Origin: Gnetum montanum
Taxonomy: Eukaryota > Plantae > Gnetophyta
Reading direction: 5' to 3'
Assembly: GCA_015680685.1 (NCBI GenBank)
Contig: MNCI01002140.1
Coordinates: forward strand, 127,797 to 191,796
DNA: 64,000 nt
The notes below the pieces were generated by a model. It was not told where the DNA came from. It ran no database searches and was given only the letters and a program-made list of their open reading frames with translations. Every line of letters begins with the position of its first letter. The first letter of the stretch is position 1. A program made the translations under genes and the position numbers. This document shows positions 29,658 through 63,700 of the stretch, one piece after another.

Positions 29658-30279
29658 GTTTTTGGGGCTAAAAGGAGGGCCAATGCCATTTCCTTCTATA
29701 GTATCCCTTGGTTGTTGCCTCACATGCTTTCTCCACCACCATTGCTAGCTCCAAGCTAGTGTAGACCTCACACCCCTATGGACCTACCATGGTAGTAGCT
29801 AAATATCAAGCCAACATAGGAGTTGTTTACAAATTGTTGGTGTAGATTGGATCCTATTGTCAGTTCCCCTAGAAGCCTGCTTGACAACACTAGAGTATGT
29901 ACCTTACGCTTAGCTAAATTTTGGGCACTCAAGAGAGCATAGTTGGCTCTTATTATAGACAACATAGTTGACTCTAGCATAGTGAGTGTGGTCCTAGAGT
30001 TAGCCATTTTTTAAGCAGTTTACACTTAGTCATTTTTTTTTTTACATTTTTTATACTTAGCCATTTTTTCAGTAGTTTTATACTCAACCATTTTTTCTAC
30101 ATTTTCACACTTAGTTGTTTTAGTAGAGTTAGTCTTTTTTCTACCTTTTGCAAATAGCAACTTTTGAGTTTTCCCTTTTAGCATTATGAACACTAAGTAG
30201 CCTTCGACCTTTTCTTCAAGCATAGTTGTTGTCCAACCTATTTAGTAAGAAACCTAGATTGACCATCCTATCAGTCCTA

Positions 30280-33927: not shown

Positions 33928-34753
33928 TGAAACAACCCAAAATTCAAAGACATTCTTGCTTCACCAGTCCTTCACAATTCGAACAGCATTATGGTAGTTC
34001 TTTGGGAGATGGATGCTCTAATTTTTAGACTGTCCACTTCAGCAAGTTTTCTAAGTCAAGGAGCCTTGCTATGCTACACTATTCCATGTAGTGTAGAAAA
34101 CTTTAGAAGACATTTGCAAAAGCACAATGCTATGCTATGTGATGCAATGTAGCATAGCATAGCAAAAGCTGGACGACCAGTCCCCTCTCCTAACTTCAAG
34201 TCCTTTGGTATTGTCTCCTTCCATCAGAAAGCAGCGAACTTGGTCGACATCAGGTCATGTTTGATGCTACGCTTAGCTACATGGTGCAGCAAGGTGTACC
34301 AATTCTACAGAAGTTGACAGGAGGCAACTCAAAGGGCGAAATCAGCAAGTTTGCAAGTTCTGTAGTGCAAAAAGGAAAAGTTTACAAATTGGTGATGTTT
34401 TTACGACTAAGGCTAGTCGCTATGCTATGCTATGCTACGTAGCGTAGCATAGCATAGCACACATGCAATGAACAGCCTGCACGTTTCAAAGGCTTTCTAC
34501 ACATGTAGCAAGATGCGTAACAAGATGCTACACTATGCCAACATGCTATGCTACAAAGCATAGCAAAGTGGCAAGCGGTTATGTGACATTAATGCACCTC
34601 ACCTAATTGCACTATTGCTATGACAGCGTAATTACGGTGCGACAGCCCCGTAATCACGGCATGGCAGGCTCGTCCAATGGTCATATAGGCATGTGTAGCA
34701 TAGACAGGTTAGCATAGGCCCAAGGCATGTGGTGTTCAAACCAAATCTTCCAT
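33928..34753 (+). repeat. 5' LTR of E, U3 only
   Basis: Collinear with 43393-~44213, then diverges just before the TATA box; R, U5 and PBS are missing. Confidence 0.85.
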
Positions 34754-35221: not shown

Positions 35222-37660
35222 ATGACTTCTACAACTACCGCTATTAACACCTTCAATGTGGAGGTCCCCATCACAGTTCAAGGCACCACTGGTGGCGAAC
35301 AACTGCTGAACCCAACACTGGAAACATGTTGATCCCTCAAGATCCAAAACTGGGGACCTAAGGGCTTGGCCTAGCAACATGAGCGTTACAACTTCCTCTG
35401 TGCGAAGGTATAGGAAAACCTACCTTTGGATGTACACGAACTCGAACATAAACATAGCTTCGAGTTCGCTTACTGCGATGGGAAGGAATTTGTTCCCACT
35501 CCCGGCATCTCCATACCTTTGGCATAGGCAAACCAAAGGCTTTTAGACCAACTAATCTAGTTGGCTAGGCTTAGGGAGCAACAAGACATAGCGTCCAACC
35601 AAGACAATGTCTTTCAGGATGGACAGGAGGAACTCGATTTCCAATCTGACAAGGGAGGTCCAACCAACCCTGTTCTTGTCCCTCCTATCCAATCCTTTTG
35701 GGCCAACCCGTTGTCTGTCACTACTCCCTTTTTCATCATGTCTACACTCCTATAGCCTGCAACTACAACCTCAATGGGTAGCCATGTCACATTCCCAGTG
35801 TATCAATGCCCTTATTCTCCTATTTCATTTGCAGCAACCATGCATCTGCAAACTATTCAAAAATCCATTCTTGTAGCGCATCGCACACCAATCAAGGCTA
35901 CTCTACCACATGTTCATGCTATGCCTTCTTTGCAATCTTACACAACTTCCATTTCGATTCCTACATTCACATCTGTTCCACCCACTATGGTGGGCCTAGG
36001 TCTATCCATGTGGTGGACTCCATTCACTTCTGCGCCTATTCCACAATCATCGTAGATGTCTCACTATGTCTGCCCTCAGAACTACCAAACCTCGCAAATG
36101 GTACAACCTAACATGGGGTTATGGTTTGTTCCGTCGATGACACAAGCAATCCATCTGGCAGCTCAAACCATAGTTGCTACTCCAACAGCACCACCTGTCG
36201 GGTGGTGGATAATGCAAGAAACACCTCTCATGGGGGCTACCCCAATGGTACCGCCGATGGATCACACCACCACCCTCGCCATTCCATAGGTGGGAGCTAC
36301 CTCGGTAGTTCCCCAACTACCTACAACGTCGTAGGGTCTGGACCAAGCGTTCCAGCTCATCCAGACCCTCACTAAGGAAATAAAATACCTTAAGGCTATC
36401 GAGTCCGACACAGTACAAGTCATGGAATTTTACCAGGATGACCCTATTAGCCCTGCAATCCCTACTTTGACATTACCTCCAGGGATGCCTCTCCCACACT
36501 TCATGAAGTATGATGGGGAGGGGGATCCCAACGCACACCTAGTTACCTTTAGGTATGAGTCTCTTTTGTTGCAACAATGGCTGCATATGATCATTCGTGT
36601 CTTTGCCATGTCCCTAGCCGGGAGAGCCTTAGACTGGTATCGCGCGTTGCCATGCTCATCCATTACAATGTTAGAAGAGCTTCTAACCCAGTTCGTGACG
36701 TGCTTCAAGTATAACTTGAAGCCAGAAATCATGCTGGATCAGCTAATGAGTGTGAAGTAGGAACCTCTAGAGTCGGTCTAGAAGTTCATCCAGCGATGGA
36801 GTGTGACCCTTAATGAAATCCGCGAGCCCATCACGGAAGCCCACTTGTTGGCCATCTTTAAAGGTGCAATGAATGACTTTATCAAGTCTAAACTATACTA
36901 CCTTGCCCCTCGCACTATTAGTCAAGTCTTTGCTCAAATTAAGAGCATACAGGTGCGACTGAGACAAGCAAAGACCCAGCCTACATTGCTTACAAAAGCA
37001 ACTTCACAAAGAAGGATAAGGGTAAAGCCCCAACAACCATAGTCGCCACTGTGGCGACTAAGGCCAAGCCATGACCCAGTAACAATGGTAACAAGAGCAA
37101 CAAGAAACCAGTCATACCCATAGCTAACCCCATGCCCAAGCAGGGCAACATGTCGCAACCTCCGATTTCCACACTTGAGACATCTGCACAACCCAAGCCA
37201 AACTTTGAGCGCAAAGATCGCTCAACGTACACCCCGTTGCCTCTCAAGCCTTTAGAACTTTTGAAGCAGGTATTGGTAGTAGGGCACATGCAATACAAGA
37301 AAATGTTGCAAGAAGCCATCAACAGACATCAATGCTGATTATGTCATCAACGCCATCGGAATTGACAATGATCCTAGGCCACCCCAGTGACCATTCATGA
37401 TCCGTGTGCCTCAGCATAGTGCTTCAACACCACGAGCGGCTTACCAAAGCCCACCATGACCGTTTGTTCTAAAATTTCCTCCACAAGCATCCATCTCTGC
37501 CGCACCTGTTGAAACAAGACAAAAATTTGGGCCTAACACTTTTGGACAAGAATCGAGCTAAGTCATGCTGGTTCCTAGCATGAACAAAACCCGTGAGCTT
37601 CACAAGCAGCACCAAACAGAGTCGAATCAAGCAAGTAAAAGTTCCTCGAGATCCATTGGA
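35222..37660 (+). pseudogene. gag of E, decayed and truncated
   Basis: MEFYQDDP..KYDGEGDPNAHL..RALDWY..KYNLKP (36422-36760). Confidence 0.85.
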
Positions 37661-37671
37661 GACTACATCAA

Positions 37672-39149
37672 CATCTAGCATAAATAACTGCAAGTTTCAA
37701 ACTCAAAACACTTAGTTTTGACTAAGTATACTTCTTGCACATAGGCCTGCACACCCAGCGTGCAGCCCAGAGTGTAGCTTAGTGTGCAGCCCAGCATGCA
37801 GCTCAACATGCAGCAACTTTTAGGCCCCAAAAATGAGCCAAAGCATGCTAGAATTGAGTGTTTGGACCCCCCAAGACCTTCACCAGGGTTCCCAGTAGCT
37901 CTCAGGCACCTGAAAATCAAATTTTGGGCTTCAAATGATGGGTTTTCATTCATACATGTCTAGCGTGTACACCCAGTGTGCACCATCAAGGATCCCTCAG
38001 AACAGGCACCCCAGAACAAGATCTCCACCTACAATTGACTCTCAGAGGCAATAAAATTATCAGGCATCATCCCAGGCTCCCAAAAATGGAGATTCAACCT
38101 CAAAATGATGCACTTCCATGACCTATATGATGAGCATACATAGTCTGCACGCCCAGTGTGCACGCTCAGCGTGCATAACCAAAAGCGAGGTCAATTGGGT
38201 GATTCAGCCAACCTGCACGCTGACCTGCATGCCCAGCATGTACGCCTAGTGTGCAACACAGCTTACACTAGTTGAAGCCTTCCAAAAACATGTCAGATCA
38301 AGTCCAAATGAGCTAAAAATCCATAGGCAGCATTCTCATGACATTAGAGCCCAAATCCAAGGGCCAAGTTCAAGATTTTCTATTGTAACAGTAGTGTTCA
38401 TTTATAAAGTTTAATTCTTTTGTGTTGGTCAAATCTATAAGCTGGGTTCACACGCCCAGCGTGTACACGTTGGCATACAACACGCTGTACAGTTGTAACA
38501 TTCTTTGCACTCGGGAAACACAGCCACATGTCATCTGACTCGAAATTTTCTCACCCATGGCCATTCATACCCTTCCAAATCTGAATCTAATGCCCAAGAT
38601 CTCATAAAAACCCCAATTTTTCACTAGATCAGGGGTTGCAATTTTTGACAAAACAGAGACAAAAAAAGGGGAACCGGGGACACTGGGCAAATATCTGTGC
38701 GCTGACCATATAGCCTTCACACTGTGCCTGCAGTCCAAACAAGCATACCATCATCCCTCCGCATCCACCGAGGCTCTTCATCCACCTTGTGTCAGATCCA
38801 CAATTGCGTTTAGACCGGTGCACTATAATCTCCATTTTACAATAAAGTTGCTTCATTTTTTGTCAAGATTTTTTACAGTGTTCATTCATTCTTGTTTACC
38901 TTTTGCTTATATTTCTACACATTTATGCTCTAGTTTATGTTTATTGCACTATTTACAAATAACCCAGCTTATTGCATATTCATACGTTTGGGGAAATCCT
39001 TGTCTGATCCACATGTGGACCACCCAAGGTACTCTACCTTCATCAGTTCCAGGTCAACCTCAAGCGATGGTAGGGTCTTCTGTGCCTATCTGTAGATCTC
39101 TCGGTGTCCGTTCCATTCCAGCCTCGCACTGATGATCTCAGACAGTACA
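37672..39149 (+). repeat. 5'-truncated LTR of an F-related element (G) inside E
   Basis: Collinear with the F LTR from ~45690; ends GACAGTACA, followed by PBS TGGCGCTAGAAGGAGGG at 39155-39171. Confidence 0.8.
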
Positions 39150-39440
39150 GAAAATGGCGCTAGAAGGAGGGCCTCTCATTGCTTAAATATACTCTAATCC
39201 ACCATAGATCTCTTCAAATCCGCTAGTCCATCTCATAGATCTGCTCCTTGTGATCCTAGATCTACAATCGATTTTCTCAAATTTAGACACTGTCAGCATA
39301 GATCTGATTTTGAACCTTTTAGATCTGCGCCCTGTTCAGCCAGATATGCTGTAATCTTAGCGTGTATATGCTTCCTAGCCTATCTGCACATTGTCCAATC
39401 TGCATGCTATCCACTCAGTCTGCACGCTGCCAGACTTAGG

Positions 39441-39652
39441 TGTACGCTGTGTAGACAAGCCTACACATTGAGGGTGTATGCTGTGTAGACAAGCCTGCAC
39501 GTTGAGGGTGTACGCCGATTAGAAAAGCCTGCACGTTGAAGGTGTACGCTGTGTAGACAAGCCTGCACGTTGAAGGTGTACGCTATGTAGACAAGCCTGC
39601 ACGCTGAGGGTGTACGCTGTGTAGACAAGCCTGCACACTAAGGGTGTATGCT
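39441..39652 (+). repeat. 34-bp tandem repeat, ~6 copies, in the leader of G
   Basis: Unit TGTACGCTGTGTAGACAAGCCTGCACGTTGAGGG. Confidence 0.9.
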
Positions 39653-43392: not shown

Positions 43393-44872
43393 TGAAACAA
43401 CCCAAAATTTGAAGACATTCTTGCTTCACCAGGCCTTCGTAATTCGTGCAACATTACGACAGTTCTTCAGAAGATGGATGCTCTAATTTTCAAACTATCC
43501 ACTTCAACAAGTTTTCTAAGTTAAGGAGCCTTTCTACGCTACGCTACACCATGTAGCATAGAAAAATTCAGAAGACATTTGCAGAAGCGCAATGCTACAC
43601 TATGCTATGCAATGTAGCATAGCATAGCAAAAGCTGGATGACCAGTCCCCTCGCTTGACTTCAAGTCCTTCAGCAATGTCTCCTTTTGTCAGAAAGCGAC
43701 GAACTTGGCCGACATTAGGTCATGTTTGCTACTACGCTATGCTTAGCTACATGGCACAACGAAGCGTAGAAATTCTGTGAAAGTTGATAGGAGGCAACTC
43801 AAAGGGTGAAATCAGCAAGTTCGCAAGTTCCATAGTGCAAAAATGCAAATTTTACAGATTGGTGACATTTTTGCAACTAAGGCCAGTCGCTATGCTACGT
43901 AGCGTACCGTAGCATAGCACACATGCTATGAACAGCCTACACATTTCAAAGGCTTTCTACACATGCAACAAGACACGTAACAAGATGCTATACTACGCCA
44001 ACATGCTATGCTACAAAGCATAGTAAAGTGGCAAGTGGTTACGTGACATTAATGCACCTCACCTAATTGCACCGTTGCTCTGACAATGTAATTACGATGC
44101 GGCAGGCCCGTAATTATAGCGTGGTAGGCTCGCCCGATGGTCATACAGGCACGTGTAGCATAGACAGGTCAGCATAGGCCCAAGGCACGTGGCGTTCAAA
44201 CCACATCTTCCATGCGTCCTTGGTCCTATAAATACTCCAATGAGTGACACTTAAACTCTCCCTAGCTCTCTCTCTCCGATCCTTTTTCGCATGATCCTCT
44301 GGTTCGCCCTCTGAAAAATTTTGGCTCTCTAGCATTCTCTGGCATTGTAAGCTTTCTGTTTAGACATTGTAAACAGTTAGCATTCTCAGTTGGCATTTAA
44401 TTCTGTTCTTTTCTACCACCTTGGTAGAACTTCGCATTGTTAACACCGAAGTCCACGTTCGAGCACACAACCCTCTTGCTCTACACGTCTTGGTTACTCT
44501 CGAGATCTCTACACTTCCCAACGTTGTGCAACCGATTGTATCCATCCTGACAGAGCGAGGTCATAGCTTCGAAGTGGTGCACTTTTCTAATTGCATTTCT
44601 ACATTATCTCTTGTTTACTATTGCATTTTAACTTGTTTCCTATTTCTTTTGCATTTAAACATTACTTCGAGCTACCAATCTCACTTTCAAATCACACGTT
44701 GCAAAAGGTTATATAGACATTGACTAAGTCCCTGTCTGATCGTCTAGACCATTCAGGGTGCCCCGTTTTCATTCCATCCATCACGGCCCTCCCATGGAGA
44801 TAGGGTCAAGACTACCTAGCGGCCTACAGTCCCTCGGCGTTTTTCCAGCCGCTGATGTTTTTGGTCGCTACA
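43393..44872 (+). repeat. 3' LTR of E (1480 bp)
   Basis: TGAAAC...GCTACA; PPT 43380-43392; TATA CTATAAATA ~44226; TSD follows. Confidence 0.9.
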
Positions 44873-45096
44873 CCCCTCACTTCTACATATCCTACCTACT
44901 TGCACTTTCTTTGTGCATTTACATTTTCCTTGGTTGTTTTCATTTTGCATTATTTACTTTATTGCGCATTTGTTTCTTTTGTTGGTGCATTTTTCTTAGT
45001 TTACGTCTTATTTATTTTAGTAGTTATTAGCTTCCTTATGAAAAAAATTAAAATACATAGAAATCATAAAATTTGAAAATTCCAAAAAAATACATG

Positions 45097-45300: not shown

Positions 45301-45512
45301 TCAACTCATAGTGGCCTAGTCGCATCAAATTCATTGCATTATTAGCAATGAAACACATAATAAATAAACACAAAATTCTACACATCATACAATCCATATA
45401 GCAAAATGTCCATTTCATCTCATAGAAGTAACAATACATAGCATGATCATCTGTACCATATAGCAAAAAATACACAAGAATGCAAAAATGTCCAATAGTA
45501 GGGCTACATCAG

Positions 45513-46833
45513 TGAAACACCACAAAATTTTGGCCTAACACTTTCAAACAAAATTCAAGCTAAGCCATGTTGTTGCCCAACATAAGTACAACATGACCAA
45601 ATTTGAGAGTCTCCAAAACGGCATGGAATGACATTCAATGGAGCAAGCAAGGTCCCCCTGGGACCCATAGGCAACTACACCAGTTTTTGGCATCTAGAAT
45701 CAAAGGTTTCGAGCTCAAAATACTTTGTCTTCACTGGGCACACTTTGGTTACATTTTCTTACGCTGCACAGCGTAAGGCTTAGCGTCACCAACTTTGGAG
45801 CCCCGAAACTGAGCCAAAACAAGCCAAAATTGAGCACAAGGTCCCCAGCCCTCAGAATCCTGATTTCGGGCTCAAAAATACACTATTTTCACTACTCATG
45901 CCCAACTCATGCTCACACCCAGGTCACATCCAACTCACGCCCAGCTCATGCTGACAGCGTGAGCTACCAAAAATGGCCTAGAACATATCAGATGCATGTT
46001 GAAAACACACCAAGGCAAGATCTAGCAGCTGATCCAAGCGAGCTGGAATCAAATTTTGAATTCATTTTTAATGTTCATTGTAAGATTCGCAATTTGTAAA
46101 TTTTCCAAGCTCTTATGCTGCTTCCATGGGCGTAAGATAGCTTGCGTTGTAAGATACAGTGCACCCGGTCTAGAACGTAGTTTGCCCATGTACACCTGTC
46201 ATGCGATCCATTTTTCTTTCATCTCATAGCTGTTGATCTAATTCATTCCTATGCCCAAGAGAAGTAGATAAATACCCTATTCAAACACATAAAAGGGGTT
46301 GGCAAATGTTGGCAGAAATTTAGCAAGAAACCAACAATCCTGAGCCCGGACACACATGATTCCCAGCGCCTGCAAACACCACGCATCAGGGCTTGACTTC
46401 TGACTTGCAACGCAACTACATTTTGACCAGTGCACATTTTTGTCAATTAATAAAATACAGTTTCATTTTTGCCATTCGTTGCCTTGTTTTGATTTATTTT
46501 CTGCATTTTCCATTCCATTGCATCTTCCTGCGTACATTTTGTTTACGTTTACATCCTGTTACGTTCATTATGCTCAGTTACATTCATTACGCTCTATTAT
46601 TTTTGTTACGCTATGTTAGTTTCTCTATTTTATGCTTGTGACGATAACCCTAGCACAGGCAATAACGTACGCTTGGGGAAGTCCTTGGTTGATCTGCGTG
46701 CAGACCATCCAAGGCACTCTGCCTTCATTTTTCCAGCGTGCCCTCACGTGAAGGCAGGGTCGTCTATATCTCTCCGGAGATCTTTCGACGTTTTTTTCCT
46801 TCCAGCCTTATGCCGATGATTTCGGACAGTACA
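45513..46833 (+). repeat. 5' LTR of F
   Basis: TGAAACAC...CAGTACA; collinear with 59368-60728. Confidence 0.95.
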
Positions 46834-46838
46834 GAAAT

Positions 46839-46854
46839 TGGCACTAGAAGGAGG
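46839..46854 (+). promoter_or_regulatory. Primer-binding site of F
   Basis: TGGCACTAGAAGGAGG, 5 nt after the LTR; same motif at 39155 and 29663. Confidence 0.8.
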
Positions 46855-46982
46855 ACTTCTTCTTTCCATTTGAAAAACCCTTAGTCACCCCGCGCTTCGA
46901 AACGTTGCACAGATCAAGCGCTAAAATCAAAAACCTTATTCACGCTGAACCTGTTCTTGCTAAACTTTCTCATGTTGTAGAT

Positions 46983-47520
46983 TTTTACTCACGCTGAGCT
47001 TGGTTACGCTCAGACCAATTTTACTCACGCTGAGCCTGGTTACACTCAGGCCAGTTTTATTCATGCTGAGCTTGGTTACGCTCAGGCTAGTTTTACTCAC
47101 ACTGAGCTTGGTTACGCTCAAGCCATTTTTACTCATGCTGAGCTTGGTTACACGTAGACTAGTTTCACTCACACTGAGCCTGGTTACGCTCAGACCAATT
47201 TTACTCACGCTGAGCCTGGTTACACTCAGGCCCGTTTTATTCACGCTGAGCTTGGTTACGCTCAGGCTAGTTTTACTCATGCTAAGCTTGGTTACACTCA
47301 GACCAGTTTTACTCATGCTAAGCCTAGTTACGCTTAGACCAGTTTACTCACACTGAGCCTGGTTACGCTCAGACCAATTTTACTCACGCTGGGCCTGGTT
47401 ACGCTCAGACCAATTTTACTCACGCTGAGCTTGGTTACGCTCAGGCTAGTTTTACTCATGCTAAGCTTGGTTACACTCAGACCAGTTTTACTTACACTGA
47501 GCCTGGTTATCCTTAGCCCA
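46983..47520 (+). repeat. 36-bp tandem repeat, ~15 copies, in the F leader
   Basis: Unit TTTTACTCACGCTGAGCTTGGTTACGCTCAGACCAA with internal inverted repeat CTGAGC-N8-GCTCAG. Confidence 0.95.
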
Positions 47521-47586
47521 ATCTGCTCAAGTTAGCCTTACATATGCTCCTTACATAAATTTAGCTAGTCAAACCAGTTATACACA

Positions 47587-50500
47587 TGGAAGCTTCCTAG
47601 ATCAAAGCAACATTGCCCATCTCTAACCTTAATGCTGAAATCCCAAATCCTGTGAGCACAACCGAATCCATAGTCGCCGTTGGAGAGATGAACCTTCAAG
47701 GACCAACTCGTCGGTCACTTAGGTTATAAGGCAAAGACCCCTCCTATATAGTTCTCACCTCAGAACAATACAATTTCATCTGTGTAAAGATCCAAGCCAA
47801 TTTACCCACTGATCGTGTAGAAATAGAAGCAAAAAGACATTTTGAGCTCATTTATAAGAGGGGCCACAAATTTATCCGTTATACCATACTCTCATGGGGA
47901 TTCATATCATACTCTCAGTCCACATACTTATGCGAATCCATTATTCTACCCTTTCATTGGGGAGACCATGTCTCTCCATTCATTTAAGACCACTCAAACA
48001 CACGTGCCCCAACAAGAAGTGTCTAGTCTTATTCCCACTCTTCCTATGATCAACTCCCAATTCACTATGCCCATCCCCACTATCCCTCCAATTACTACCT
48101 TACCCTCCCTCTTGCAAGTACAACCCCAACAAGCCCCCTCTCAAATTAATATGAGAGCAACTTTCCCATCCCAAATAATTGGGATGCCATCTGTCATACC
48201 TGCTACCACATCTACACACTTCATCCCACGAGTACAGGTTCATACCACACCCTTGGCTCCTCCAGTACAACACCAGGTACAAAGTCTCCATGCACAATCC
48301 ACAGTTGGGAAATGGCTTGCCCTTGTTGCTCAACAACAACAACAACCCACACCTTACGGTATGCCACCCTTAGTAGCATCCACTATAAATATGCCACAAG
48401 TGCAACCTCCGATCACTCAACAATCATCATTCCGACCAATTGTACAACAGTCTAATTTGTATGGCACTCAAACTAACCAACCTCCCCCTTTACCTAGTGC
48501 CCAAGACTGGGCTGAAGCTAAAAAAATGATGCAAGAGCTAGCCGACGAGGTAAAACGCCTCAAAACCACTAAGAATGAAGAGCTTAAAGTATTAGACTTT
48601 TACCAAGATGATCCTATTAGCTCTTTGGTATCACAGTTAACCTTACCCAAAGGAGTTTCNATACCAAAGAGCTAATAGGATCATCTTGGTAAAAGTCTAA
48701 TNCTTTGGTATCACAGTTAACCTTACCCAAAGGAGTTTCTTTGCCTCAATTAACCAAATACAATGGGGAAGGAGACCCTAATGCTCATCTAGTCACATTT
48801 AGACTAGAATGCTTGTTGCTTCAAGCTTGGCCCCATGCAATCTTGCATGTGTTTGCCATGTCCCTCACTAGTAGAGCATTAGACTGGTACTGAGCCTTGC
48901 CTCATAACTCCATATCCTCCTTGGAGGACCTCTTACACTAGTTCATTACTAGGTTTAAATACAACCTAAAACCTGAAGCAACCTTGGACAGTTTAATATA
49001 GGTGAAACAAGTGCCCCTTGAACTTGTACAAAAATTCATCCAAAGATGGAGTGCCGCACTCAATGAACTTCATGAGCCAATCCTAGAAACATACCTTCTT
49101 ACGATTCTTAAGGGAGCCATGAATGATTTCATCAAATCAAAACTATACTACCTAAATGCGTGCACTCTAAGCCAAGCTTTTGTATAGATTAAAAACATAG
49201 AAGAGGCAGCTCAAAATAGCCATGTCCCTGCCTACTTAGCCTTTAGAAATCAACACACTAAAAAGGATAAAGAAAAGGCTAAAGCAACAGTAGCAGTAGT
49301 AGCAGAGACTCAACCTCCCAACATGAAAGAGCAAGGCAGATCACCTACTGCTCCTGTTAACTACGAGAGAACTGCTCCTGCACATACAACTGAATCATCT
49401 TCCATGCAAGCTAATAACATAGGTCATACATGTACGTTCGAGAGGAAGGACCCCGCTCACTACACACCGCTCCCCATGAAGCCTTCTCAATTGTTAGATC
49501 AACTTTTGAAGGCTAGGGCCATTAAACATAAGCAGTTGTCCCTAGCGGCAGACCAGAGAAATGATCGATTCTGTCAATTGGCCCAAAACCCAAGCTTGGC
49601 AACTCCAAATGAGCCTCCTATTCCAAGAGGCTTTAGATTCGACGGAATGGGCATGGTACTGATTATTGTTTCACTCTCAAACAAGACATACAACGTATGA
49701 TTGATAGGGGTGAAGTAACATTTGATGATGCCAACCCAGTTAAACCGCAGAATCAATCTATGGATGTGTACATAGATCCCCTTAATACTAAGGAAGCTCC
49801 TTACATCATTAACACGATCAATATTGGAAATGAGCAAGGAATGCCCAGAAAACCGTTCGTGATTCATGTTCCTCCTACAGCATCAACATCATCCCCACAA
49901 TCTTCGTATCCCACATACAATCCGCCTACACCTACAAAACCATTCTTCGTTCGTGTACCCCCTGTCAATGCAACTGTAAATGTGCAACCGCCTACTCGGC
50001 CCACTCCCTTTGTGGTCCTGGTACCACCCACGGTCGCAACTACAGAGGTACAATTACAAAACCGACCAACTCCCTTCATGATTAGGGTACCCAAACACCC
50101 TGGTCTTCAAAATCCACCTCCTCAACCGCAAACCAAATCAACCCCATTTGTCATTAGGGTGCCTCAATGCCTTGACACATAATCATCTCCAACTGTTCAA
50201 CTGCAACCTTGACCTGCTCTATTCATCATTTGAGTCCCAAAACAACATGATGTTCAAGCTCCAACGGCTCCCCCACGACCTTCACGAGAACGTCTTGCTG
50301 ATAGACTCACTAGGGAACGGTTGGAAAAGGAACGTCGAAGTCTTGAATTGGGGCCACCAAAACCCACTCCCTTAAACGTTGTACCTATGGTTCCGACAAC
50401 TGATGAGTCGAGCATAAATCACAAAAGTAAAACATCAGGAATGCCAGATACGAAAAACCCAACTGTCACGTTAAACCACGTGAAAACCACTCCACAAGAG

Positions 50501-51549
50501 ATACAGCTATTGGGTCCAATGGACCAAGTCTCAATGAACATACCAAACAGTAAAGACTTAGCCAGTGCCCTAACTCAGGTCACACAGGCACTAAAACAAA
50601 AAAATACATCCTTAAGTCTGTATGATCTAGTGATGACTTCTCAGGTGCACCGTGAAGCCTTGGTATGAATGCTCACTTCGATCCAGGTTAGTGAGGACCT
50701 ACCTACCACTAAATCATCAATTCATGCAGTGATGTCTCCACAACAAAGATCAGGTTCCGCATCACTAGGCTTTCATCCCGAAAACATTAAAATAGATGAA
50801 AACATGGAAGAAATTACCACTGCCCCTATGTTCATAACCATTCAAGTAAACTAGTTTAAAATACATAGGGTGCATGTTGACGATGGGCAGCCACTAATGT
50901 AATACCTTTTCCCATCATCGAAAAATTAGGCCTCATGGAGCAGATTCACCCAACGGCAACAACGTTCCTAAAATCTCTTAGTGGGTCACGTGTCGTGGTT
51001 AAAGGCACAATCACTTTGGATTTCATAGCAGGGGACCGGTTCCCCACATCAGTTGAATTTGTAGTCGTAGACGAGATGCCTAGATTTAACTTGATATTGG
51101 GGCGACCATGGTTAGCCCAATTAAAAGAAGTTTCCTCACCCATCCACCAAGAGATTCACTTACCCTATGAAGGTGGTGAAATCATCATACATGGTGATAT
51201 GGCTACACTCAACACCTTAGCACACGTAGGCACAAACCAATGCTTAGAGGTTGAAATCGATGAGACTAAACAAGATGACATTACCCTCAAGCTTAAATAA
51301 GACGCCACGCCCATGGGAAACCAAGGTGATAACCAATCCCCAAACCGTGATCCCTTGGAAGATATAGAAACATCACAAAACATGGAAACATCAGGACACA
51401 CTAACATAGGGGTCATTCCCCCAAATGTCTCATGGTCAGAATTACCATTTAACATAATTAGCGAAGGAGATGTCGAATATACAATTACACCGACATGCCC
51501 AACACGTCATGTCAATCTGCGAAAATTAAAGAAGTTACTCAACCATTAA
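47587..51549 (+). pseudogene. gag-protease of F
   Basis: P/Q-rich N-terminus, gag core KYNGEGDPNAHL..RALDWY, protease VHVDDG..TNVI and FNLILGRPWL; stops and frameshifts; ends TAA 51547-51549. Start approximate. Confidence 0.9.
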
Positions 51550-51559
51550 ACAACTACTC

Positions 51560-51745
51560 GTCCGAAATGACGTTAAACTACTACTTGTCCGAAATGACGC
51601 TAAACTACTATCTTCCGAAATGACGTTAAACTAATACTCGTCCGAAATTATGCTAAACTATTATCGTTCGAAATGACACTAAACTACTATTGTCCGAAAT
51701 GACATTAAACTACTACCATGTCCACAATGACATAAAACTAGCCAC
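51560..51745 (+). repeat. Motif array, 7 x ~26 bp, directly after the gag-PR stop
   Basis: GTCCGAAATGACGTTAAACTACTA units; three more dispersed copies at 51829, 52108 and 52138. Confidence 0.9.
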
Positions 51746-54519
51746 AGTCATAAAACTAGCCACGGTCAAAAATGGCAGGTTCATTTTAAAACCCACCAAA
51801 ATAGTTTATATCTCTCTTGTTTCTTGTGGCCCAAAATGGCCTTAAACTAGAATAAGTTACGCTTCTTCTTAATTAAAATTATATTCTAGTTTGCATGCAT
51901 AGTTGCATCCCTGCTTTACAAATTACCGTGTCCCTCACATTTCTTCTACACTATTATCACTTTAGTTGCATCCACGCTTATATTTACAAATAGTTAAGAC
52001 AACAAAACAACAAAAAATTATATAATAATAATAATAATAAGGAAAATAATAATAAACTTTTGCCAAAAACAACTACAGTCTCTTCTTCCTTTGACAAAGA
52101 TACGATAGTTCATCATGACTTTAAACTGACGTGTCTAGCCTGAAATGGCTTTAAACTAGAACACAGCATACCACCAATTTACCGAAATTGTGCTACATTA
52201 TTATCATTTACGTTTTGCTCGACATAGTTACAGTTTACATTTACGTTCACAAGGAAGCTTGAAAAGTAAAACATGAATATACAAATACATGTAATACGGA
52301 GTGTTAGCACAAAAAAAAAAGAGTAACTTCATATTATACCATGATCATGTTACATTTGTTTTCACATATTCCAAAATCAACAAAAAAGGGGTACATGATA
52401 ACAAACTAGACAAGAAATGACAAGGTTGACAAGAACACCAAGCTAAATCGTGCACTAGTGTTAGGAGGGGGCTAGTCCCCAAATTCATCCACATCATCGA
52501 GTCCCACTCCACTGGGGCCAGCCTCATCATCAACACGTCCCTGCACCAAAACAAAATCCTAGGTAAGTAAGTTAAAATTTGTGAAACAAACAAATGAAAA
52601 TAACCATCAACAAAACATAAATATACAAGAGAGAATTAGCAAGAGAAATAATAATAAGATGAATAACTACAAAAGTTGTATGTCCCATGGGACAATAACT
52701 CTAGCATTTGTTCGGTACGTTTAATCCTGAATGGGGAACATGGAATCTATTAGGTAACACCAACATCAAAAGGATAACGTTTGCAAATATTATTAGTTTA
52801 TGTTACAATAGGCATCATGACCTCACGCTGATTACTTGCTTGGACCAAAATGGGTTGCCATTGCCTAGCATGATAATTCAATTAATCATGGATAGTACAA
52901 TAGTCATTAGTAACAAAAACACTAAAAAATAAAAAATAAAAAAAATAAAAACAAAAAAACGATTAAGTTAATAAACACAAATCAAACAACTTAAAACAAC
53001 AAAAGAACTAATAATAATAATAATAATAATAAATCAACACTAGTCATGATGAGGGGGGAAGTAAAAACAAAGCACCGTGAACTTGCATATGGCCACTGGC
53101 CATGTGCTGGTGGGATTCGTTGCTTTTTTAAGCAAACAGATTTTAAAATAGTAAACAAGCATCCATTCATCATCATGTTCATGACTCATGAACCATGACA
53201 ATGAGCCTGTTTTGTCTTTTTCTTTTTTCAGCGGAAATAAATAAATAAATAAATAAAAAGGGGGGAGTTACATATAATAAATACTTCATATACCCTCCTA
53301 TTGGTTTTGTACTATATTACTTGCCGGTTTTGAGCGCAGATAATACGTGGTTTTAATGCTTTCTTTTTTTTTTCAAGCATATTGATACATGTCAAACGCA
53401 GGGGCATTAAACACAAAAGGATTCAAGCTTAGTGATTGACACAGGTACTGTTGACGAATGGCGGCGTTGTCGATTAACGCGTGACAATCAATCTCAAACG
53501 CCGTTTGTACTTTTGTTTTGAGTCTGCAGCAGAAATATAAAACAAAAGCAGCAGAAATATAAAACAAAAATAGCAAAAAACCAGCAATTAAAAATATATA
53601 TATATATATATATAATAATGCGTGAATGTGTGAGTTATGAAACCTTTGGTGCTCCCAAAGGCAGGCCGATCCACGCAAATGCAACGTTTTCTTCGCACGC
53701 CTCGCCCAAAGACTCACGCTGAAGACGGCAGGTAGCTCACGCTCCAAAACGGCGGCTAACTCACGCTGCAGACGGTGGCTGACTCACGCTGTGAAATGGC
53801 AGCTGACTCACACTGCAATACCTTGAATACTGTTATAGCAGCGATTTGGTGTCTGAATACATTTCAATTCATAGAATAACCCATAAACACTATAAAATTT
53901 TAGCACTAGTGTCGGTTATTGGTAGCGATCAACAAAGCCGATGTTGGCTAAAAGAATTATTCATGTTGCTCACGCTGCCCAGGGCCAGTTATTCACGCTG
54001 TCTAAGGCAATTCACGCTGCCAAGCAAAAGTTTGCAAAAATGCACGAAAAAAAAATACAGTTCCGACAACATATGCTTACGCTCGGGCAAAAATATAGGA
54101 AAATCGCAGTAAAAAATGCACAAAAAAAATTGCAGTTCGCGCAAGTCACATATGAAATGCAGTGAAATACCCTGCAACTAATGTTGGTCCTCCCAACCCA
54201 AAACGCAGCCAACAATGCTCGAAACATGGCAGTCCTGCTACCCACGCTATGTCCCTGCTACCCATGCCACGTTACCTGCCTTGTTGCTCACGCTACCACG
54301 TTATGTCCCTGTAACTCACGCTACCCTATGTAACTCACGTTGCACTCAGTTAGTCACGCTATTTTTTTTTTTTTAATTCCTTTAGCATGTTAGTTCATCT
54401 TATTTCTCTTCTCTTCTATTTTTTTTTTTTTTTGAGAGAATGTTCGGGTTTGTATTGCTGAAAGTTATGGTACACGAGTATACAATTACAAAGGGGGACA
54501 ATTACACGAGTATATCAAT

Positions 54520-57500
54520 GGATCACATGGGGCCATTCAACAAGAAGTCAATCTAGAATCCATTGATCTAGATTCATCATCAATTTCTGACAATTTTGTG
54601 GCATCCACTCAAGGAACACCAGACTACCTAAGAGATATGACTAAAACTTTGGACTTAGAAACAGACACCATCATTGAGGACCCCATCGTCGAAGTCCCCA
54701 TCACCATGTCTAGTGGTGAGGTTAAAACATTAAAACTAAGTACTCTACTAGATCCGCAAATTGCCAATGACATTACACAAGTGCTAAAGAATAATATCAA
54801 AACATTTGCTTAGTCATATACCGATATGCCAGGGTTGGACCCTCGCATCAACCAGCATAACATCATCCTCGATGAAAAACTTAGACCAGTAAAGCAAAAT
54901 GCACAAAAAGTTAGGCTTGAGGTAGCGTTGGCAGTTCGTAATGAAATCACGAAGCTCTATCAAGCCGGTTTCATCCGAGCTGTTGACTATGCCGATTGGG
55001 TATCCAACATTCTTGTAGTCCCTAAGAAGAACAGCAGCATTCGCATATGTATTGACTTCCGTGACCTCAACGTAGCCACTATAAAGGATGACTTCTCGCT
55101 ACCCAGTATCGACCAACTCGTTGACTCAACCACTGGGCATGCATTATTATCCTTTATGGATGGATTCTCGGGATACAACCAAATCAGGATCAACCCAGAA
55201 CACCAACTCAGGATGACCTTCATGACACCTTGGGGCACGTTCTGTTATACAATGATGTCATTCGATCTCAAAAACGCGGGTGCCACATATCAACGGGCAA
55301 TGACATATATATTTAGCTATTACATGCTTGATTTGCTCAATGATTATGTAGAAGACATCACAGTCAAGTCCAAAACAACCGAAGAACATGCAAAGCATTT
55401 AGACTTGGTACTCAAACATTGTCTCAAATACGACCTTAGGCTTAACCCAAAGAAATGCGTCTTTGGAGTTAAGACAGGAAAAATGCTTGGCTTCATAGTC
55501 TCTGAGATAGGAATACGAGTAGACCCCGATAAGGTTAAAGCAATAACTAGCATGCAACCACCTAGGAACCTTACCGAATTACGTGGTCTGGAAGGTAGAC
55601 TGCAATTCATCAGACGCTTGATCACAAAACTAACAGATAAGCTGAAACCCATGTAGCACGTGCTACGAAAGAACGTCCATTTTCAGTGGACTCAATAGTG
55701 CCAAGAAGCCTTTGAAAGCATAAAGATGGAATTGGCTCAATTGCCAATGGTTCATCCCCCACAAAGCAACAAACCTTTTTACATCTACCTCGTGACATCC
55801 GATACATCTATTGCATTCATGCTTTGCCAAAAATGAGAAGATGGAGCCGAGATCCCCGTTTACTATTTAAGTCACGCCTTGGTTGCCCACAAACAATGAT
55901 ACAACGACGTGGAGAGATCATGCTTCACCCTTGTCTTTTCCTTGAAAAATTGGCGGCATTACCTCTTCTGCAACCAAGTTAATATCATTTGCAAAGATAG
56001 CGTGCTTCGAGCTATCACCAACAACATCTATGAATCAAGTAGGTTAGCTAGATGGAAGGCGATGATTGCAGAGTTTGTCCTGCATTATGTTGCCCAATCC
56101 TCTACTAAGGGTCAAGCAATAGCCAATCAGTTGACCGCATCATCAACACGAGGTCAAACAACGATCAACCTTGAATTCCCCGACGAAGACATTAACAACA
56201 TAGACGTAGTGCCCGATAACTATGATGCCATCCTGTACTTTGACGAAGCATTCACCTCCCGAGGTGGAAGTGCTGCAACCATCATAACGTATCCCTCGAA
56301 AGAAATTCGCCCCTTTGCCTATCGACTAAACTTCCCTTCCACCAAAAATGTGGCAAAGTATGAAGGTCTTCTTAGAGGTCTTATAGCGGCACTAACTTTG
56401 GGAATCACACGTCTTGTAGTTCAAGGTGACTCACATTTCGTAGTTAATCAAGTCACAAAGATCTACGCATGTAAAGCCCTGCATCTGCAACCATACTGTG
56501 ACATGACTTAACACTTGTTAAAACGATTGATCAACGTAGACGTGCAACATATTCCTAGGAATGAAAATACCATTGCAGATGCACTTGCCATAATAGCCCT
56601 GAACATGACACCTGAGATGCTCCATGTGTTGCCTAGTTCTATAACAAATTGTGCCAAACTTGTGACCAACGCCCTTGATGAAATACCCATAGCGTCCGTC
56701 AGCACTACATAAGCAATAGAGTGGTACGACAGCATAAAAGAGTATCTTCTACGAGGCGAACCGCCACAACATCTGACGAGTGCTCAAAAGGATGCGATGC
56801 GAAAATGCTCTAGGCAATATGCATTAATAGGAGACACCTTGTGTCGCAAGTCCTATGAAGGCATCCTGTTGACATGCGTCAGTAGCATTGATGGCCAAAT
56901 GATCATAGAACAGGTTCACGAAGGACTATGCGGAGGGCATATAGCACCCAAAGCAATGGCAATGAAAATTAGACATTTAGGCTATTACTGGCCACACATG
57001 GAGTACGAATGCTTCTCCAGGGTCAGGAAATGCAACATTTGCCAAAGACACGGTAACCTAATACACGTACCACCTAATGAGTTGCATACTGCGCAAATCA
57101 CATGGTCATTCCAAAAATGGGGATTAGACATCATTGGCCCTATAACACCACCATCCTTAGCAGGACATAGCTTCATCATCATTGCGACCGAATACTTCAC
57201 AAAATGGGTAGAAGCTATTCCTCTTAGGAAAACCATGTCTAAATATGTCTGCAACTTCATATTGGAAAACATCGTGACATGCTTTGGTATCCCAATGACT
57301 ATAGTCACCAATAATGGGCCACAGTTTAGTAGTACGGATACTAAAAACTTCTGCGAAAGCCTAGGTATTAAATACTCGTTTTCATCACCTTATTACCCAC
57401 AGAGCAATGGCCAAGCGGAATCTACGAATAAAACGATCATCATGGTGCTCAAGAAAATGCTAAATCAGAGCAAAATAGGATGGCACGAGTAGTTAATCTA

Positions 57501-57960
57501 TGCACTATGGGCATACCGAACAACACACCAAACGTCCACAGGTAAAACACCATATAGCCTAGTATACGGATCTGAAGCTGTCTTACCTTTAGAGTTACAG
57601 GTTCCCTCGTTGCGAATGATGCTCTCTAGTCTTCTCGATGAAAGCCAGAACAATGAACTGCGCATCGCTGATCTTGACTCGGTGGAGGAAGAAAGGGTAC
57701 ACGCACTTGATCAAATCGAATGGTACCAGAGACAACAACGACAATGTCATCAACATGATCCACATAAGCAGCCGATCAAGGAAGGTGACCTAGTTCTCAA
57801 GGCGGTCCGCGAACACTCAGATAAATTCTCAGCCAACTAGGAAGGACCTTAATTAGTCACTAAAGCCTATGACAATGGGGCATTCAAGCTCGCCAACTTG
57901 GACAGAAACGAATTGGCCAATCCTACGAATCACATGTACTTGAAACCATTCTACGTCTAA
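54520..57960 (+). pseudogene. pol of F: RT, RNase H, archaeal-type RNase H, integrase
   Basis: RT 54826-55656 (CIDFRDLN, FMDGFSGYNQI, YVED); RH ~55770-56150; aRH LYFDE..KYEGL..GDSHFVVNQV ~56230-56600; INT HHCC (HEGLCGGH..CNIC), WGLDII, PQSNGQAE; several stops and frameshifts. Confidence 0.95.
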
Positions 57961-57980: not shown

Positions 57981-58286
57981 GTCCTGGCATGACGACCTAA
58001 AACTAAAACCACAGAACAATCCCAGAGCTATGACTTAAAACTAGCACCACAGAATGTCCTGGCATCATGACAATAAACTGACATCACAGAGCTCTGTCCA
58101 ACATGACACTAAACTGTCACATTCATTCACCAAAGTCCACTAAGACTATAAATTGGCTAGCCTCTTCATAGTCCGCCACGACTATAAACTAGTATGGCAC
58201 TGTCTGCTACGACGCTAAACTAGCAACGTCCAACGGGTTATGACATAAAAGTAATCCACAAAAGTCCGCCAAGACTATAAACTGGA
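57981..58286 (+). repeat. Motif array, 9 copies with variable spacers, directly after the integrase stop
   Basis: e.g. GTCCGCCACGACTATAAACTAG and GTCTGCTACGACGCTAAACTAGCA; starts 20 nt after the TAA ending at 57960. Confidence 0.9.
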
Positions 58287-59367
58287 AACTTCTTCACTGG
58301 CCTACCAATCTGTGGCTGAAATCAAAAGGCATGTCATCATCAACCTGCTCAATGAATTCATCACATGGACTCCAAAAATATTGCTACTGCTCAATCTTGT
58401 TTGCCTATGGTTGCACGTGGTATTCCATCCCATCAGTTGCATCCATGTTAAAGTGTTAAGCTAACTCATTCGCTTGTGTTTTTTCTTGTCTTCTTGGAGT
58501 TGTGTTTACAGGACGATACCTAGAGGTGTTCATACACAGATACACTTCATCAAGGCAATGAGGTACCACATTGTTCCTAATGCATGTAACCAGGTTAATC
58601 AAACTATTGACAAGTACATTCCCAGTTCCCCGAATGTCCCTCATTCCCTAGCATGTTCTCTCTACTATGTTCAATTACACCCCCTTTGATACATCCCATT
58701 CATCCCCAAAATTCTGCACGCGTTGTTGCTCACTGTAACTCTACAACCAATGGCAACACAAAACGATGCATAGCACATGACAAAAACATGAGTACAAAAC
58801 TAACAGCAAGCTCTTTCCAAAAACAAAAAACAAAAAGCAAAAAAAAAAATAAAGAAAGACTCAAAGAACAAAATCCATCACAAGACCCATTGACACTTCC
58901 CATATAAGCCCCAGGAGAGAAGGTAAATGTCTTGGAAGAAAACATTCATGTCTCAAACAATCATGTTGCATCCCACCATGTGGCTTTGGTTGTGACAACG
59001 AGTTCTCTTAAATAGGATACAAGAGTCTCGTTTCTCCAAAGGACACATATCCCATGCCTTGGTTCCAAGTCCGCTAGATATTGGCTATTGACAAGGACCA
59101 ACATGAAGTGTCCACACAAAAGCATTCCTCTTCCCATAGTTAAACAAAATCATCCCTTCATCAATCCCTGATCTCATAGTAACACACCTTCTCCCTATGC
59201 ATCTCAAAACCTCATTTCCCAATCCCATGTACTTCTGAGCACAGTGCGATGACATTTGGCCAAGTACCGACAGACAATGCTTGGTACTTGATCATTCATG
59301 GTGTTTTGTACTTCTTTGTCGACGCTTCTCAGGTAGATTCCTCTACATGTCAACAAAGAGGGGCCAA

Positions 59368-60728
59368 TGAAACACTGCAAAATTTTGGCCTAACACTTTC
59401 AAAAAAAATTCAAGCTAAGCCATGCTGTTGCCCAACATAAGTACAACATGACCAAATTTGAGAGTCTCCAAAATGGCATGGAATGACATTCAATGGAGCA
59501 AGCAAGGTCCCCTTGGGACCCACAGGAAACTACACCAGTTTTTGGCATCTAGAATCAAATGTTTCGAGCTCAAAATATTTTGTCTTCGCTGGGTACACTT
59601 TGGTTACATTTTCATATGCTGCACAGCGTAAGGCTTAGCGTCACCAACTTTTGGAGCCCCAAAATTGAGCCAAAATAGGCCAAAATTGAGCACAAGAACC
59701 CCCCATGACCTCCACTAATGGTTGCCCAAGGTCCCCAGCCTTCAGAATCCTAATTTCGGGCTAAAAAATATACTTTTTTCACTGCTCACGCCCAAGTCAC
59801 GGCCAACTCATGCCCAGGTCACACCCAACTCATGCTGACAGCGTGAGCCCAGTGTCAGCTACCAAAAATGGCCCAGAACATATCAGACGCATGTCAAAAA
59901 CACATCAAGGCAAGATCTAGTAGCTGATCCAAGCGAGCCGGAATCAAATTTTGAATTCATTGTTAATGTTCATTGTAATATTCGCAATTTGTGAATTTCC
60001 CAAGCTCTTACGTTGCTTCCATGGGCATAAGATAGCTTGCATTGTAAGATACAGTGCACCCGTTCTAGAACGTAGTTTGCCCATGTACACCTATCATGTG
60101 ATCCTTTTTTCTTGCATCTTGCAGCCGCTAAACTGATTCATTCCTACATCCAAGACAAGTAGATAAATACCCTGTTCAAACACATAAACGGGGTTAGCAA
60201 ATGTTGGCAGAAATTTAGCAAGAAACCAGCAATCTTGAGCCTGGATGCATGTGATTCCCAACGCCTGCAAACACCACGCATCAGGGCTTGACTTCTGACC
60301 TACAACGCAACTACATTTTGACTGGTGCACGTTTTTGTCAATTAATACAATACAGTTTCATTTTTTCCATTCGTTGCCTTGTTCTGATTTATTTTCTGCA
60401 TTTTCCATTCCATTGCATCTTGCTGCGTACATTCTGCTTATGTTTACATCCTGTTACGTTCATTACGCTCAATTACATTCATTACGCTCTGTTATTTTTG
60501 TTACGCTCTGTTATTTTCTCTGTTTTACGCTTATGACTATAACCCCAGCGCAGGCAATAGTGTATACTTGGGGAAGTCCTTGGTTGATCTGCGTGTGGAC
60601 CATCCAAGGCACTCTACCTTCATTTTTCTAGCATGCCCTCACATGAAGGTAGGGTCGTCTGTATCTCTCCGGAGATCTTTCGGTGTTCATTTCCTTCCAG
60701 CCTTACGTTGACGATTTTGGATAGTACA
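59368..60728 (+). repeat. 3' LTR of F
   Basis: Follows PPT AAAGAGGGGCCAA; has a ~30-bp segment (~59697-59728) absent from the 5' LTR. Confidence 0.95.
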
Positions 60729-60740: not shown

Positions 60741-63700
60741 TTAACCAATAGTACTAGGAGGGGGTGGTGGTCCTCCTTCCTCTACTACACCGCTAAGGCC
60801 TATAGCATCACCTAGTGCCTATTAACAACAATAAAAAACTTACAAGAAAATGTACAATATACAAACTAACATCAAAAGCATAAAAGAAATACAAAAAACT
60901 AACCTGAGAGGGTCCTGCATTGATCATGTCTAGAGATAAGCTATCAAGGCCCTCCTCTAAGCATTGGAGGATCTTGGCCTTAGATAGCTGCATCTAGTCC
61001 TCCTAGCCAAAGTCAACTCCTACAAGGGTCTTGCCTTTGTCCATTGTGGTCCATACAGGTGGCTTCATGGAAATTGTAGCAAATGAAGCCTCTCTTAAGG
61101 GCATGAAAATCTACCTCTCCAGAGAACCACTAACCACTATATGAAAAGAAAATATCTCAAAGGTCCATCTCCTACCAGTCACCTCAAGAAAAATCTCATG
61201 GCAATGACATTTGATAGACTCTTCCTTGAGTTGCTAAAGATATGCATCTCACTTGTGCTTATAGTGGTGTTTGTGGTTCTTTTGTGTCTACCCCCACTTG
61301 CATACCTTGGCACTAAGATTCTTCCAATTCTAATTTTTTTCCGTAAGCAGATGCATCTATAACCATTGCACATTGATCTCTTAGGTGGCCTCATTCTTGC
61401 CCTAGATGGTCAACCAGTACCTAGCATAATCAATCTTTGTGGTCTTCCAGGTACTATCTCCCTATGACCAAGCTGCTAAGAAGTCATATTAGGACTGTAG
61501 GTCCTCAATCTTTGTGTCTTGACTCATCACCTGAAGTTCATGAACATGTTTCCACAAGTGCTTGTTCAAGCACCTGCAAACCCATAATGCTTTTGCACAA
61601 GAAAGAATGCATTTACTAACTACCTTGTATATAAGACAAGGTACTTGCTCCACTTTAGGAGGGAACTCCGGTATGGCATCTACTTTAACCACCCTACTTA
61701 GATCTTAGTGAAGCTTAGAACCTGTTGGCATATAACAAGTAGATCAACCTTAGCCATAGACTAAGCATTAAATGGGTAAAGCAACATCATATGCATTCCA
61801 AGCTCAAGATCCACCTGCTGGAGGTAGTTTACTATGTCCTTAGCAATGCCTTTAATGAAGGAAAACTTGTTTGGTGTTTCTACCCATGGATTCATGTGGT
61901 AGGTAGACGTGGATGGTGAACTGTTAGCAGGCTCATCTTAGGCTGCAACACAACAATGTAATAAGTAAAAACTAAACAATCAAAGATGTTAGAGCAAAAG
62001 AGCAATGACGGATAGTAATCTAAGGCAATTACCTAGTAAGCCCTCAGGTGTGAGAGTAGGGGGTCCCCCAGCTACACACCATCAAAGAGGCTAGTAATTG
62101 GGGGTGAAATAGCCCCTCCACCTTCAACTACTAGAGGGTCTCTATGGCCTCATTCAACTCCTCCTTATGTGCTTCCCTCCTCAATTCAAGGAGGGGCCAC
62201 CTATACTACTATTGTTACTGCTACTTCAGTAGCCCTCTCTCCTAATTTACAAAATAGCATGTTAGCATTAGTATAACATAGCAAAAATCATAAAGAATAT
62301 AAACATAAAAAATACAAAATAAATGCATCTAGCAATATACAAATACTAACATGCAACCTCTGTGCATCAGTTGGGGATCTTAAGATGAATCTTCTTGGTG
62401 CCTACCCATCCAACCTTAGGAGCGGCCTCCTCTATTGGGCATGGCCTTTTAATCTTTTCCTTGGATGGTCCCACCATTTCTACAATATATCAGTTAGCCT
62501 TGTTTACATCCCCAATAACAACTAGGGGACACTCACCTATGTTGTCACGTGAATAATGTGATCACCCCAAGAGACCTTTGGTTGTCACTGAGTATGACTC
62601 ATTGATCCACTCTGGGGGGTCTTGCATGTGAGTGGTTTTAAACATGTGCTTAATCCAAGGCTTAGACAGCTACTCATAGTCCTACACAATCCATTGCCCA
62701 CTATCTTGAACCACCAAGAGATCTACGAACCTTCACAAATACCCTATGAAGAATGTGAAGTGTACATGGAACTTCCCTTAGAGGTTGAAGTATAGCTTGG
62801 TGTCTCTTCATGTAGGCTAGTGGTGATGTAAGAGTCCTAGTTGAACCTCATGCCCTTCTACAAAACCTCCTTCATCATCCATGACTACTCAACTTCAAGG
62901 ATTTTTCCTTGGGAGAGCAACTTTAGGAAGGAACGGGCACGAAAGAGAGGGTAGAGCTCCTAGACCTCAAGCATATGCACATTTTTAATTAGGATTCCCT
63001 TGTGAGATCAAGTGTTTTCCAACTAGCCCTCGATCTCTCCTTTGTGGTCCACCATCCTATTGGCCTTGTCAATTACCAATAAGCCTTCAGTGGAAAGGCC
63101 AAAAAGGTCAATGAAGAAGGCCTCGTTGAGGTCCAAAACTACCCTAACACCGTGCACATGGATGATAAAGTGGCAGATATTACTGCTAAATGAGTCTATG
63201 ATGGTGACCGTTTTGGCCACCAGAATGCTTTAGCTAAGGGCCAAAAAAAGGTTCATCAACCCAACACATGTGAGCCAACTGGTCAATGCCTTTGAGGCCT
63301 AGTGGCATAACCAATGTTATACCCCCTCTACATCACCATATTTCATGATAAGGATGGCCTCAGTGGAGCCTGTGGCGACCACCATCACCTCTCGTGAAGC
63401 AACTATAGTTAAAAAAAAGGTAAAAAAATGTTAACATCATGAAAAGGCAAAAGGAAAATCAAAAAGCATATATGTGAGAAATCATAAGAGCCAAAATAGT
63501 AAACACTTACGTGGAACAAATGGTGTGCGAGATGGAGGTGGTGGTGCAATAACCTCTTCAAGGTTGAGCTCACCACTAGCCCACTACTCATCAAGCCAAT
63601 CATGGAACTTGCATTACTTGAACACTCTTAGATACTAGGTAGGGTAATCCATTAGATTAGTTCCCAACTACTTAAGAACAACCTCCCAAAGATTCAAACT

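Follow-up and report, generated by a model that had tools for sequence, protein, structure and literature searches.

Results

Nested elements and family-specific words

The window analyzed here (the whole stretch of 64,000 nt from Gnetum montanum) consists of plant repeats and includes four nested Ty3/gypsy elements, designated D2, E, G and F, which are, to judge from their sequences, decayed retrotransposons of the Tat/Ogre type. E and F are inserted into the spacer of D2, whose gag-protease reaches 33670, and G, represented by its 5' long terminal repeat (LTR), leader and gag, is inserted inside E. In the non-coding DNA of these elements, each family repeats a short word that consists of its own flank on a common YACGC(T) core, and a gene lying antisense in the spacer between protease and reverse transcriptase (RT) is the candidate source of a protein that might read it. 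The features on which the argument depends are listed below, with the word copies called boxes.

22400..25900, no strand assigned: degenerate D1 array of inverted TTCCA-NN-YT pairs, older, without an assignable parent element
27966..29660 (about), plus strand: D2 5' LTR with palindromic ACTACGCT boxes
29900..30110, plus strand: D2 leader with mixed boxes, the plus-strand ones F-like T[CT]ACRCT units and the minus-strand ones of D2 type
33929-44872: element E, inserted into the D2 spacer, target-site duplication CCCCT
33929..34753, plus strand: truncated E 5' LTR with GCTACGCT as palindromes and 5-bp tandem runs
37510..39152, plus strand: G 5' LTR, homologous to the F LTR, with closely spaced head-to-head pairs of TG[CT]ACGC boxes where the F LTR has its own
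39439..39652, plus strand: G leader array of a 34-bp unit with two boxes per unit (TGT-ACGCT, TGC-ACGCT)
43394..44872, plus strand: E 3' LTR, carrying the E word as in the E 5' LTR
45514-60728: element F, inserted into the D2 spacer, which resumes at 60735, target-site duplication ATCAG/ATTAG
45514..46833, plus strand: F 5' LTR with T[CT]ACGCT boxes and a TATA-like box at +756
46983..47509, plus strand: F leader array, 14.7 copies of a 36-bp unit with two boxes per unit (CTC-ACGCT, GTT-ACGCT) on one strand
47580..51300, plus strand: broken F gag-protease, no box enrichment
53710..54360, plus strand: cluster of one-stranded CTCACGCT boxes in the F spacer, 5' of the likely antisense gene
54431..57960, plus strand: broken F pol with RT, ribonuclease H (RH), archaeal-type RH and integrase (Pfam)
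59369..60728, plus strand: F 3' LTR, 87% identical to the 5' LTR by blastn and 90% on aligned columns

Sites were counted on both strands, with CG, TG or CA accepted in the core, and were compared with the mean of 500 dinucleotide shuffles (p floor 0.002). The word patterns were picked after inspection of the data, so that the agreement between regions is the real test. Each family was found to have its own flank on the core, enriched 7- to 60-fold over shuffles in non-coding DNA. The F word T[CT]ACGCY occurs 15 times in the 5' LTR (2.2 expected), 29 times in the leader (1.8 expected) and 12 times in the spacer at 53651-54430 (1.4 expected), and it is not enriched in the F coding DNA (8 vs 10.8 expected), the 3' region (2 vs 2.3) or the remaining spacer (5 vs 3.3). 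The G word TG[CT]ACGCY has 16 sites in the LTR against 0.9 expected and 11 in the leader against 0.6. For E, the word GCTACGCY is present at 15 and 9 sites in the two LTRs (0.3 expected), with no site after the truncated 5' LTR and none in the 3' region, and the E leader is lost. The D2 word ACTACGCY has 12 sites in its LTR (0.4 expected), and the D1 pattern TTCCA-NN-YT has 19 sites (0.3 expected).

All of the CG, TG and CA forms of the core are present in F, G, E and D2. Among 27 D1 sites, 18 have TG, 4 CA, 2 TA and 3 another dinucleotide, and none has an intact CG; this spectrum is compatible with a decayed CG and equally with a CATG word. With sites in similar surroundings set aside, 28 of the 33 remaining F sites have T at position -2 to the core, and 18 of the 24 remaining G sites have G (Fisher p=7e-6). 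An earlier sequence-only reading had proposed a private word for each subfamily, and this is borne out by the enrichment in all five, D1 having no intact CG; the 36-bp array of F and the 34-bp array of G that it reported are both confirmed. It had also proposed that the flank switches in concert in all regions of an element. This is shown for two families, F and G, and not for five: the D2 leader is mixed, the E leader is lost, and D1 has no intact site.

The same word stands in dissimilar surroundings in the different regions. By short-word blastn, the longest mutual match between the LTR, leader and spacer of F is 13 nt, and that between the LTR and leader of G is 12 nt, so that block copying does not explain the pattern and it is the word itself that has been retained. 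F and G are sisters, with gag sequences 85% identical compared with 61-64% for the others, and gag distances (from four taxa only) group F with G, whose words resemble each other. The initial 500 nt of their LTRs can be aligned and have clusters at the same two places with different flanks, and the flank swap affects both arms of the inverted pairs at matching LTR positions.

The arrangement of the sites on the two strands depends on the region. In the LTRs, sites pair head to head with family-specific gaps; the F 5' LTR has such pairs at about +247 and +384 to +444, further boxes at +601/+617, and one-strand copies at +1056 to +1118. The leaders and the spacer are one-stranded, with 29 plus and 0 minus sites in the F leader, 12 and 0 in the F spacer, and 11 and 0 in the G leader. 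Most LTR sites precede a TATA-like box, and clusters lie 5' of this box in all four LTRs. In the spacer of F, the cluster lies beside a conserved block. Of the 12 sites in the F spacer cluster, 11 are intact. The CpG observed/expected ratio is 1.06 in this region, 0.73 in pol and 0.44 in gag, which hints weakly at a promoter with less methylation.

A probable antisense spacer gene

The gene that we consider as the source of the candidate trans factor is present in the window as one long copy, in D2, and as apparent fragments in F:

60745..63500, minus strand: broken, spliced antisense gene in the D2 protease-RT spacer, with four exons, T-rich introns and a Cys/His-rich stretch
52470..52545, minus strand: likely last exon of the F antisense spacer gene, weakly similar to the last exon in D2 (4 of 500 shuffles scored as high)
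53641..53710, minus strand: block beside the F cluster, common to far more copies than the cluster, probably a 5' untranslated part

In the D2 gene, the introns have 21-32% GC and 49-61% T, and the exons have 42-54% GC. Using DNA contigs from 4 runs (three studies, four organism labels), in which depth is not equal to copy number, we found a summed depth of 2085-10043 for the bin 53650-53679 and of 4-525 for the bins 53710-54399. The loose ends of the contigs show that many copies sharing the block diverge from F at 53710 into different sequence. F-type contigs retain the word, and the unit number of the spacer cluster varies among copies. We infer that the block is the conserved 5' part of the antisense gene and that the F cluster is its family-specific promoter.

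RNA data were taken from four runs of two studies, two of them stranded (X11 and X13). Reads of related copies stack on the block 53641-53710, where they are polyA reads, and on 52280-53299. Over the latter, stranded reads run mostly in one direction (in the first bin, 26 vs 1 in X11 and 16 vs 0.4 in X13), which by the usual convention of the tool is mostly antisense. No RNA dataset match was listed for the F LTR and leader.

A resemblance of the first long exon of the spacer gene to PMD, seen by eye, was not borne out by Pfam or by a profile of Ogre open reading frames (ORFs). A single-sequence structure model of the accessory protein had a predicted local distance difference test (pLDDT) score of 35.7, too low for use, and no relative was found among viral contigs.

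Other features of the window

A second possible antisense ORF lies in the 3' region of F:

58270..59345, minus strand: broken, no family match, no F boxes nearby

Its counterpart in E is a possible minus-strand ORF at 42450-43255, and each of the two starts beside the polypurine tract; they have no mutual tblastx similarity and no Pfam match. Elements E and F may therefore carry two antisense genes each.

A second repeated word, TAAACTR/TAAAACTR, is common to D2, E, F and the neighbourhood of D1 and is repeated 3-9 times each at 26080-26216, 42030-42350, 45090-45320, 51546-51870 and 57990-58290. In F, the arrays are directly 3' of gag-protease and of pol, and sense read piles lie within or just after them. 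From this position and from the sense-oriented piles, these arrays may mark the 3' ends of separate transcripts.

A single deletion at 41695-41696 fuses G gag to the integrase tail of E, and the 3' part of G and the pol of E are gone. In F gag, a short duplication between two N positions (48661-48745) resembles an assembly join. At 1-1790 and 8000-10780 of the window lie two Athila-like extra ORFs that are related to each other and include a long helical part; the match of the second to Transposase_32 is weak (E 5.6e-6), under the curated cut-off.

Discussion

We tentatively propose that the family-specific words are bound by a sequence-specific protein, and that this protein is most likely the candidate accessory protein encoded antisense by the element itself. 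According to this proposal, the accessory protein would bind the YACGC(T) variant of its family (7-9 nt) in non-coding DNA, and the bound protein would activate its own internal promoter as well as that of the LTR, which would form a family-specific loop. Local duplication would multiply the current word, and selection would retain the variant that is read by the protein of the family. Both the binding of a protein to the words and its origin in the element are put forward here from the layout of the sequences. The idea of protein-motif co-evolution in the sequence-only reading gains from the retention of the word in unrelated contexts, from the paired or one-strand layout and from the position of the F cluster 5' of the likely antisense gene, and it loses from the accessory gene, for which no similarity was detected, be it to VANC, to PMD or to any family.

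Several observations weigh against the proposal. The accessory gene has no Pfam match, its searches of the protein database gave 0 homologous candidates among 624, 755 and 83, its matches to PDB sequences were chance matches only (best E 1.1 and 0.08), and a PMD/DUF7745 profile made from 8 angiosperm Ogre ORFs, which is narrow when applied to copies as heavily decayed as these, found no match. Most of the spacer gene is missing from F, which apparently retains only the last exon and 5' pieces. The RNA reads derive from copies other than F: of 6068 reads, only 13 are at least 99% alike. Those that leave the block 53641-53710 are mostly not F-type, the strand bias in X11 extends equally to gag and pol, and the RNA read matches listed include no canonical splice joint. 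In the F LTR pair, 3 motif CpGs are shared and 8 decayed, compared with 17 and 23 for other CpGs (p=0.49), and in the E LTR pair the numbers are 1 and 6 compared with 9 and 21; there is no sign of a lasting protection of motif CpGs between LTR pairs. The D2 leader has 2 D2-type sites (0.1 expected) together with 4 F-type sites (0.8 expected), and a shuffle test, in which 55 of 300 shuffles scored equally well, gave no support for homology between the leader units of F and G. In addition, host transcription factors could produce the same pattern.

This last explanation, in which the words are sites of host factors and the families shift flank and spacing to recruit paralogues while reusing the box at the LTR and the internal promoter, is possible, though we hold it with some doubt. 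It agrees with the placement of clusters ahead of a TATA-like box in each of the four LTRs, it requires no intact accessory gene, and the YACG core presumably resembles a NAC-type site. LTR repeats, those of Sirevirus among them, are also usually interpreted in this way (PMC2829016, PMC4728375). However, the sister families F and G, in one host, have switched the flank throughout their regions, and the gaps within inverted pairs are family-specific; a fixed host factor favours neither change, whereas a switch of paralogue would. The accessory protein is thus slightly favoured as the reader of the words over a host factor.

Explanations without a DNA-binding protein appear weaker. Neutral turnover, in which template switching during reverse transcription and slippage seed and amplify pieces, is quite unlikely in our view. 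Family-specific tandem arrays for which no function is given are indeed common in Retand and Ogre (PMC11963269), of the 14 angiosperm relatives inspected 11 have such an array, F-type copies differ in unit number, and the D2 leader is mixed; yet the regions share the word alone and not its surroundings, a hypermutable CpG core persists in five families, and neither coding DNA nor the 3' region is enriched in the words. Less probable again is a role of the words in the structure of RNA or single-strand DNA (packaging, dimerisation or small-RNA hairpins) instead of as double-strand sites. When folded, 5 of 11 pieces, including several LTR clusters and the G leader, clearly beat their shuffles (z -2.3 to -6.2), and Sirevirus palindromes give rise to hairpins and small-RNA hotspots (PMC4728375). 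Against this, pieces of the F spacer cluster fold no better than shuffles in three tests (z -0.8, +1.4 and +2.1) and its sites are one-stranded, so that this cluster is not a hairpin; the leader sites are one-stranded as well, and a hairpin function would not require an identical primary sequence in all regions.

The proposed reading by the accessory protein matters for the following reason. No function is known for the extra ORFs and repeat arrays of Tat, Ogre and Retand elements (PMC6317226, PMC11963269), nor is a factor known that reads the Sirevirus motifs. The clade described here contains sister families that differ by one word, and a candidate gene adjoins the word, which makes sequence-specific activators encoded by LTR retrotransposons a directly testable question.

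Comparison with known systems

F has the features that define the Tat/Ogre-Retand group. The Pfam domains follow the order RT_RNaseH, RVT_3 and rve (definition in PMC6317226), and gag-protease is 3 kb apart from pol, with the protease-like region ending near 51300 and RT beginning near 54700. As in Ogre and Retand, the protease is fused to gag and separate from pol, RH and then archaeal-type RH precede the integrase, and extra ORFs and family-specific tandem arrays are present (PMC6317226, PMC4408406, PMC11963269). The order of RH, archaeal-type RH and integrase has been described as angiosperm-specific (PMC6317226); it is nevertheless found in F at 54431-57960. Retand elements have family-specific arrays and antisense ORFs predicted to be DNA-binding (PMC11963269, PMC4408406), but the antisense ORF of Retand is located after pol, whereas the antisense gene here lies between protease and RT. 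From 80 angiosperm-type relatives fetched, the best of them 45-56% identical, 25 long loci were used for top words and 14 for position, most without whole LTRs. ACGCT was never among the top words of the 25 loci, and the top word was confined to a single array in 11 of the 14. The literature searched, with supplements and most subscription journals outside its scope, held no report of a YACGC(T) word family and none of a retrotransposon protein that binds a motif of its own LTR.

VANC of the VANDAL transposons and TnpA of Spm recognise family-specific motifs (PMC5735166; bioRxiv 10.64898/2026.08.24.746577). The likeness is that a short family-specific motif is tandemly multiplied in non-coding DNA of an element that has an accessory gene; such a multiplied word is found fully in F and G, and D2 is mixed. 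VANDAL and Spm are, however, DNA transposons with demonstrated binding and demethylation, whereas the present case is a sequence pattern alone, with no VANC or PMD homology detected. A PMD extra ORF is present in 57% of Ogre elements (PMC6317226), and the PMD-type proteins MAIN/MAIL1 have a structural likeness to VANC and associate with DNA motifs (PMC13547354; bioRxiv 10.1101/2024.09.27.615353). By analogy, given the occurrence of PMD in Ogre and the likeness of PMD and VANC, the idea of protein-motif co-evolution in the sequence-only reading is plausible. The full VANC-like system, in which the antisense protein would be a DNA-binding anti-silencer that co-evolves with the YACGCT box and activates its own promoter and the LTR, we nevertheless consider somewhat unlikely. 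If it were true, each family would be a private regulon, this would be a retrotransposon case of sequence-specific anti-silencing, of which none was found in the literature searched, and the same logic would be suggested for the Sirevirus motifs.

The sequence-only reading took VANC as its precedent, but the repeated motifs of Sirevirus (SIRE, Ty1/copia) are closer (PMC2829016) and appear to be the closest known match. In Sirevirus, family-specific CpG palindromes with a shared core occur in the LTR ahead of the TATA box and again 5' of the env-like gene, and the motif is missing from the linker where the env-like gene is absent (PMC2829016, PMC4728375). Membership in Sirevirus is ruled out for the present elements by the gypsy domain order and the YACGC core, as Sirevirus has the Ty1/copia order and a CGG-CCG core. 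The accessory gene differs too, being antisense, likely spliced and placed between protease and RT here, and in the present elements the leader also has the word and the internal copies are one-strand half-sites. What the two have in common is a palindromic, family-specific CpG motif whose core is shared and which clusters 200-400 bp into the LTR and again 5' of an accessory gene. This layout is present in F, with the same motif before the LTR TATA-like box and 5' of the presumed start of the accessory gene, and its occurrence in both copia and gypsy lineages points to a shared design.

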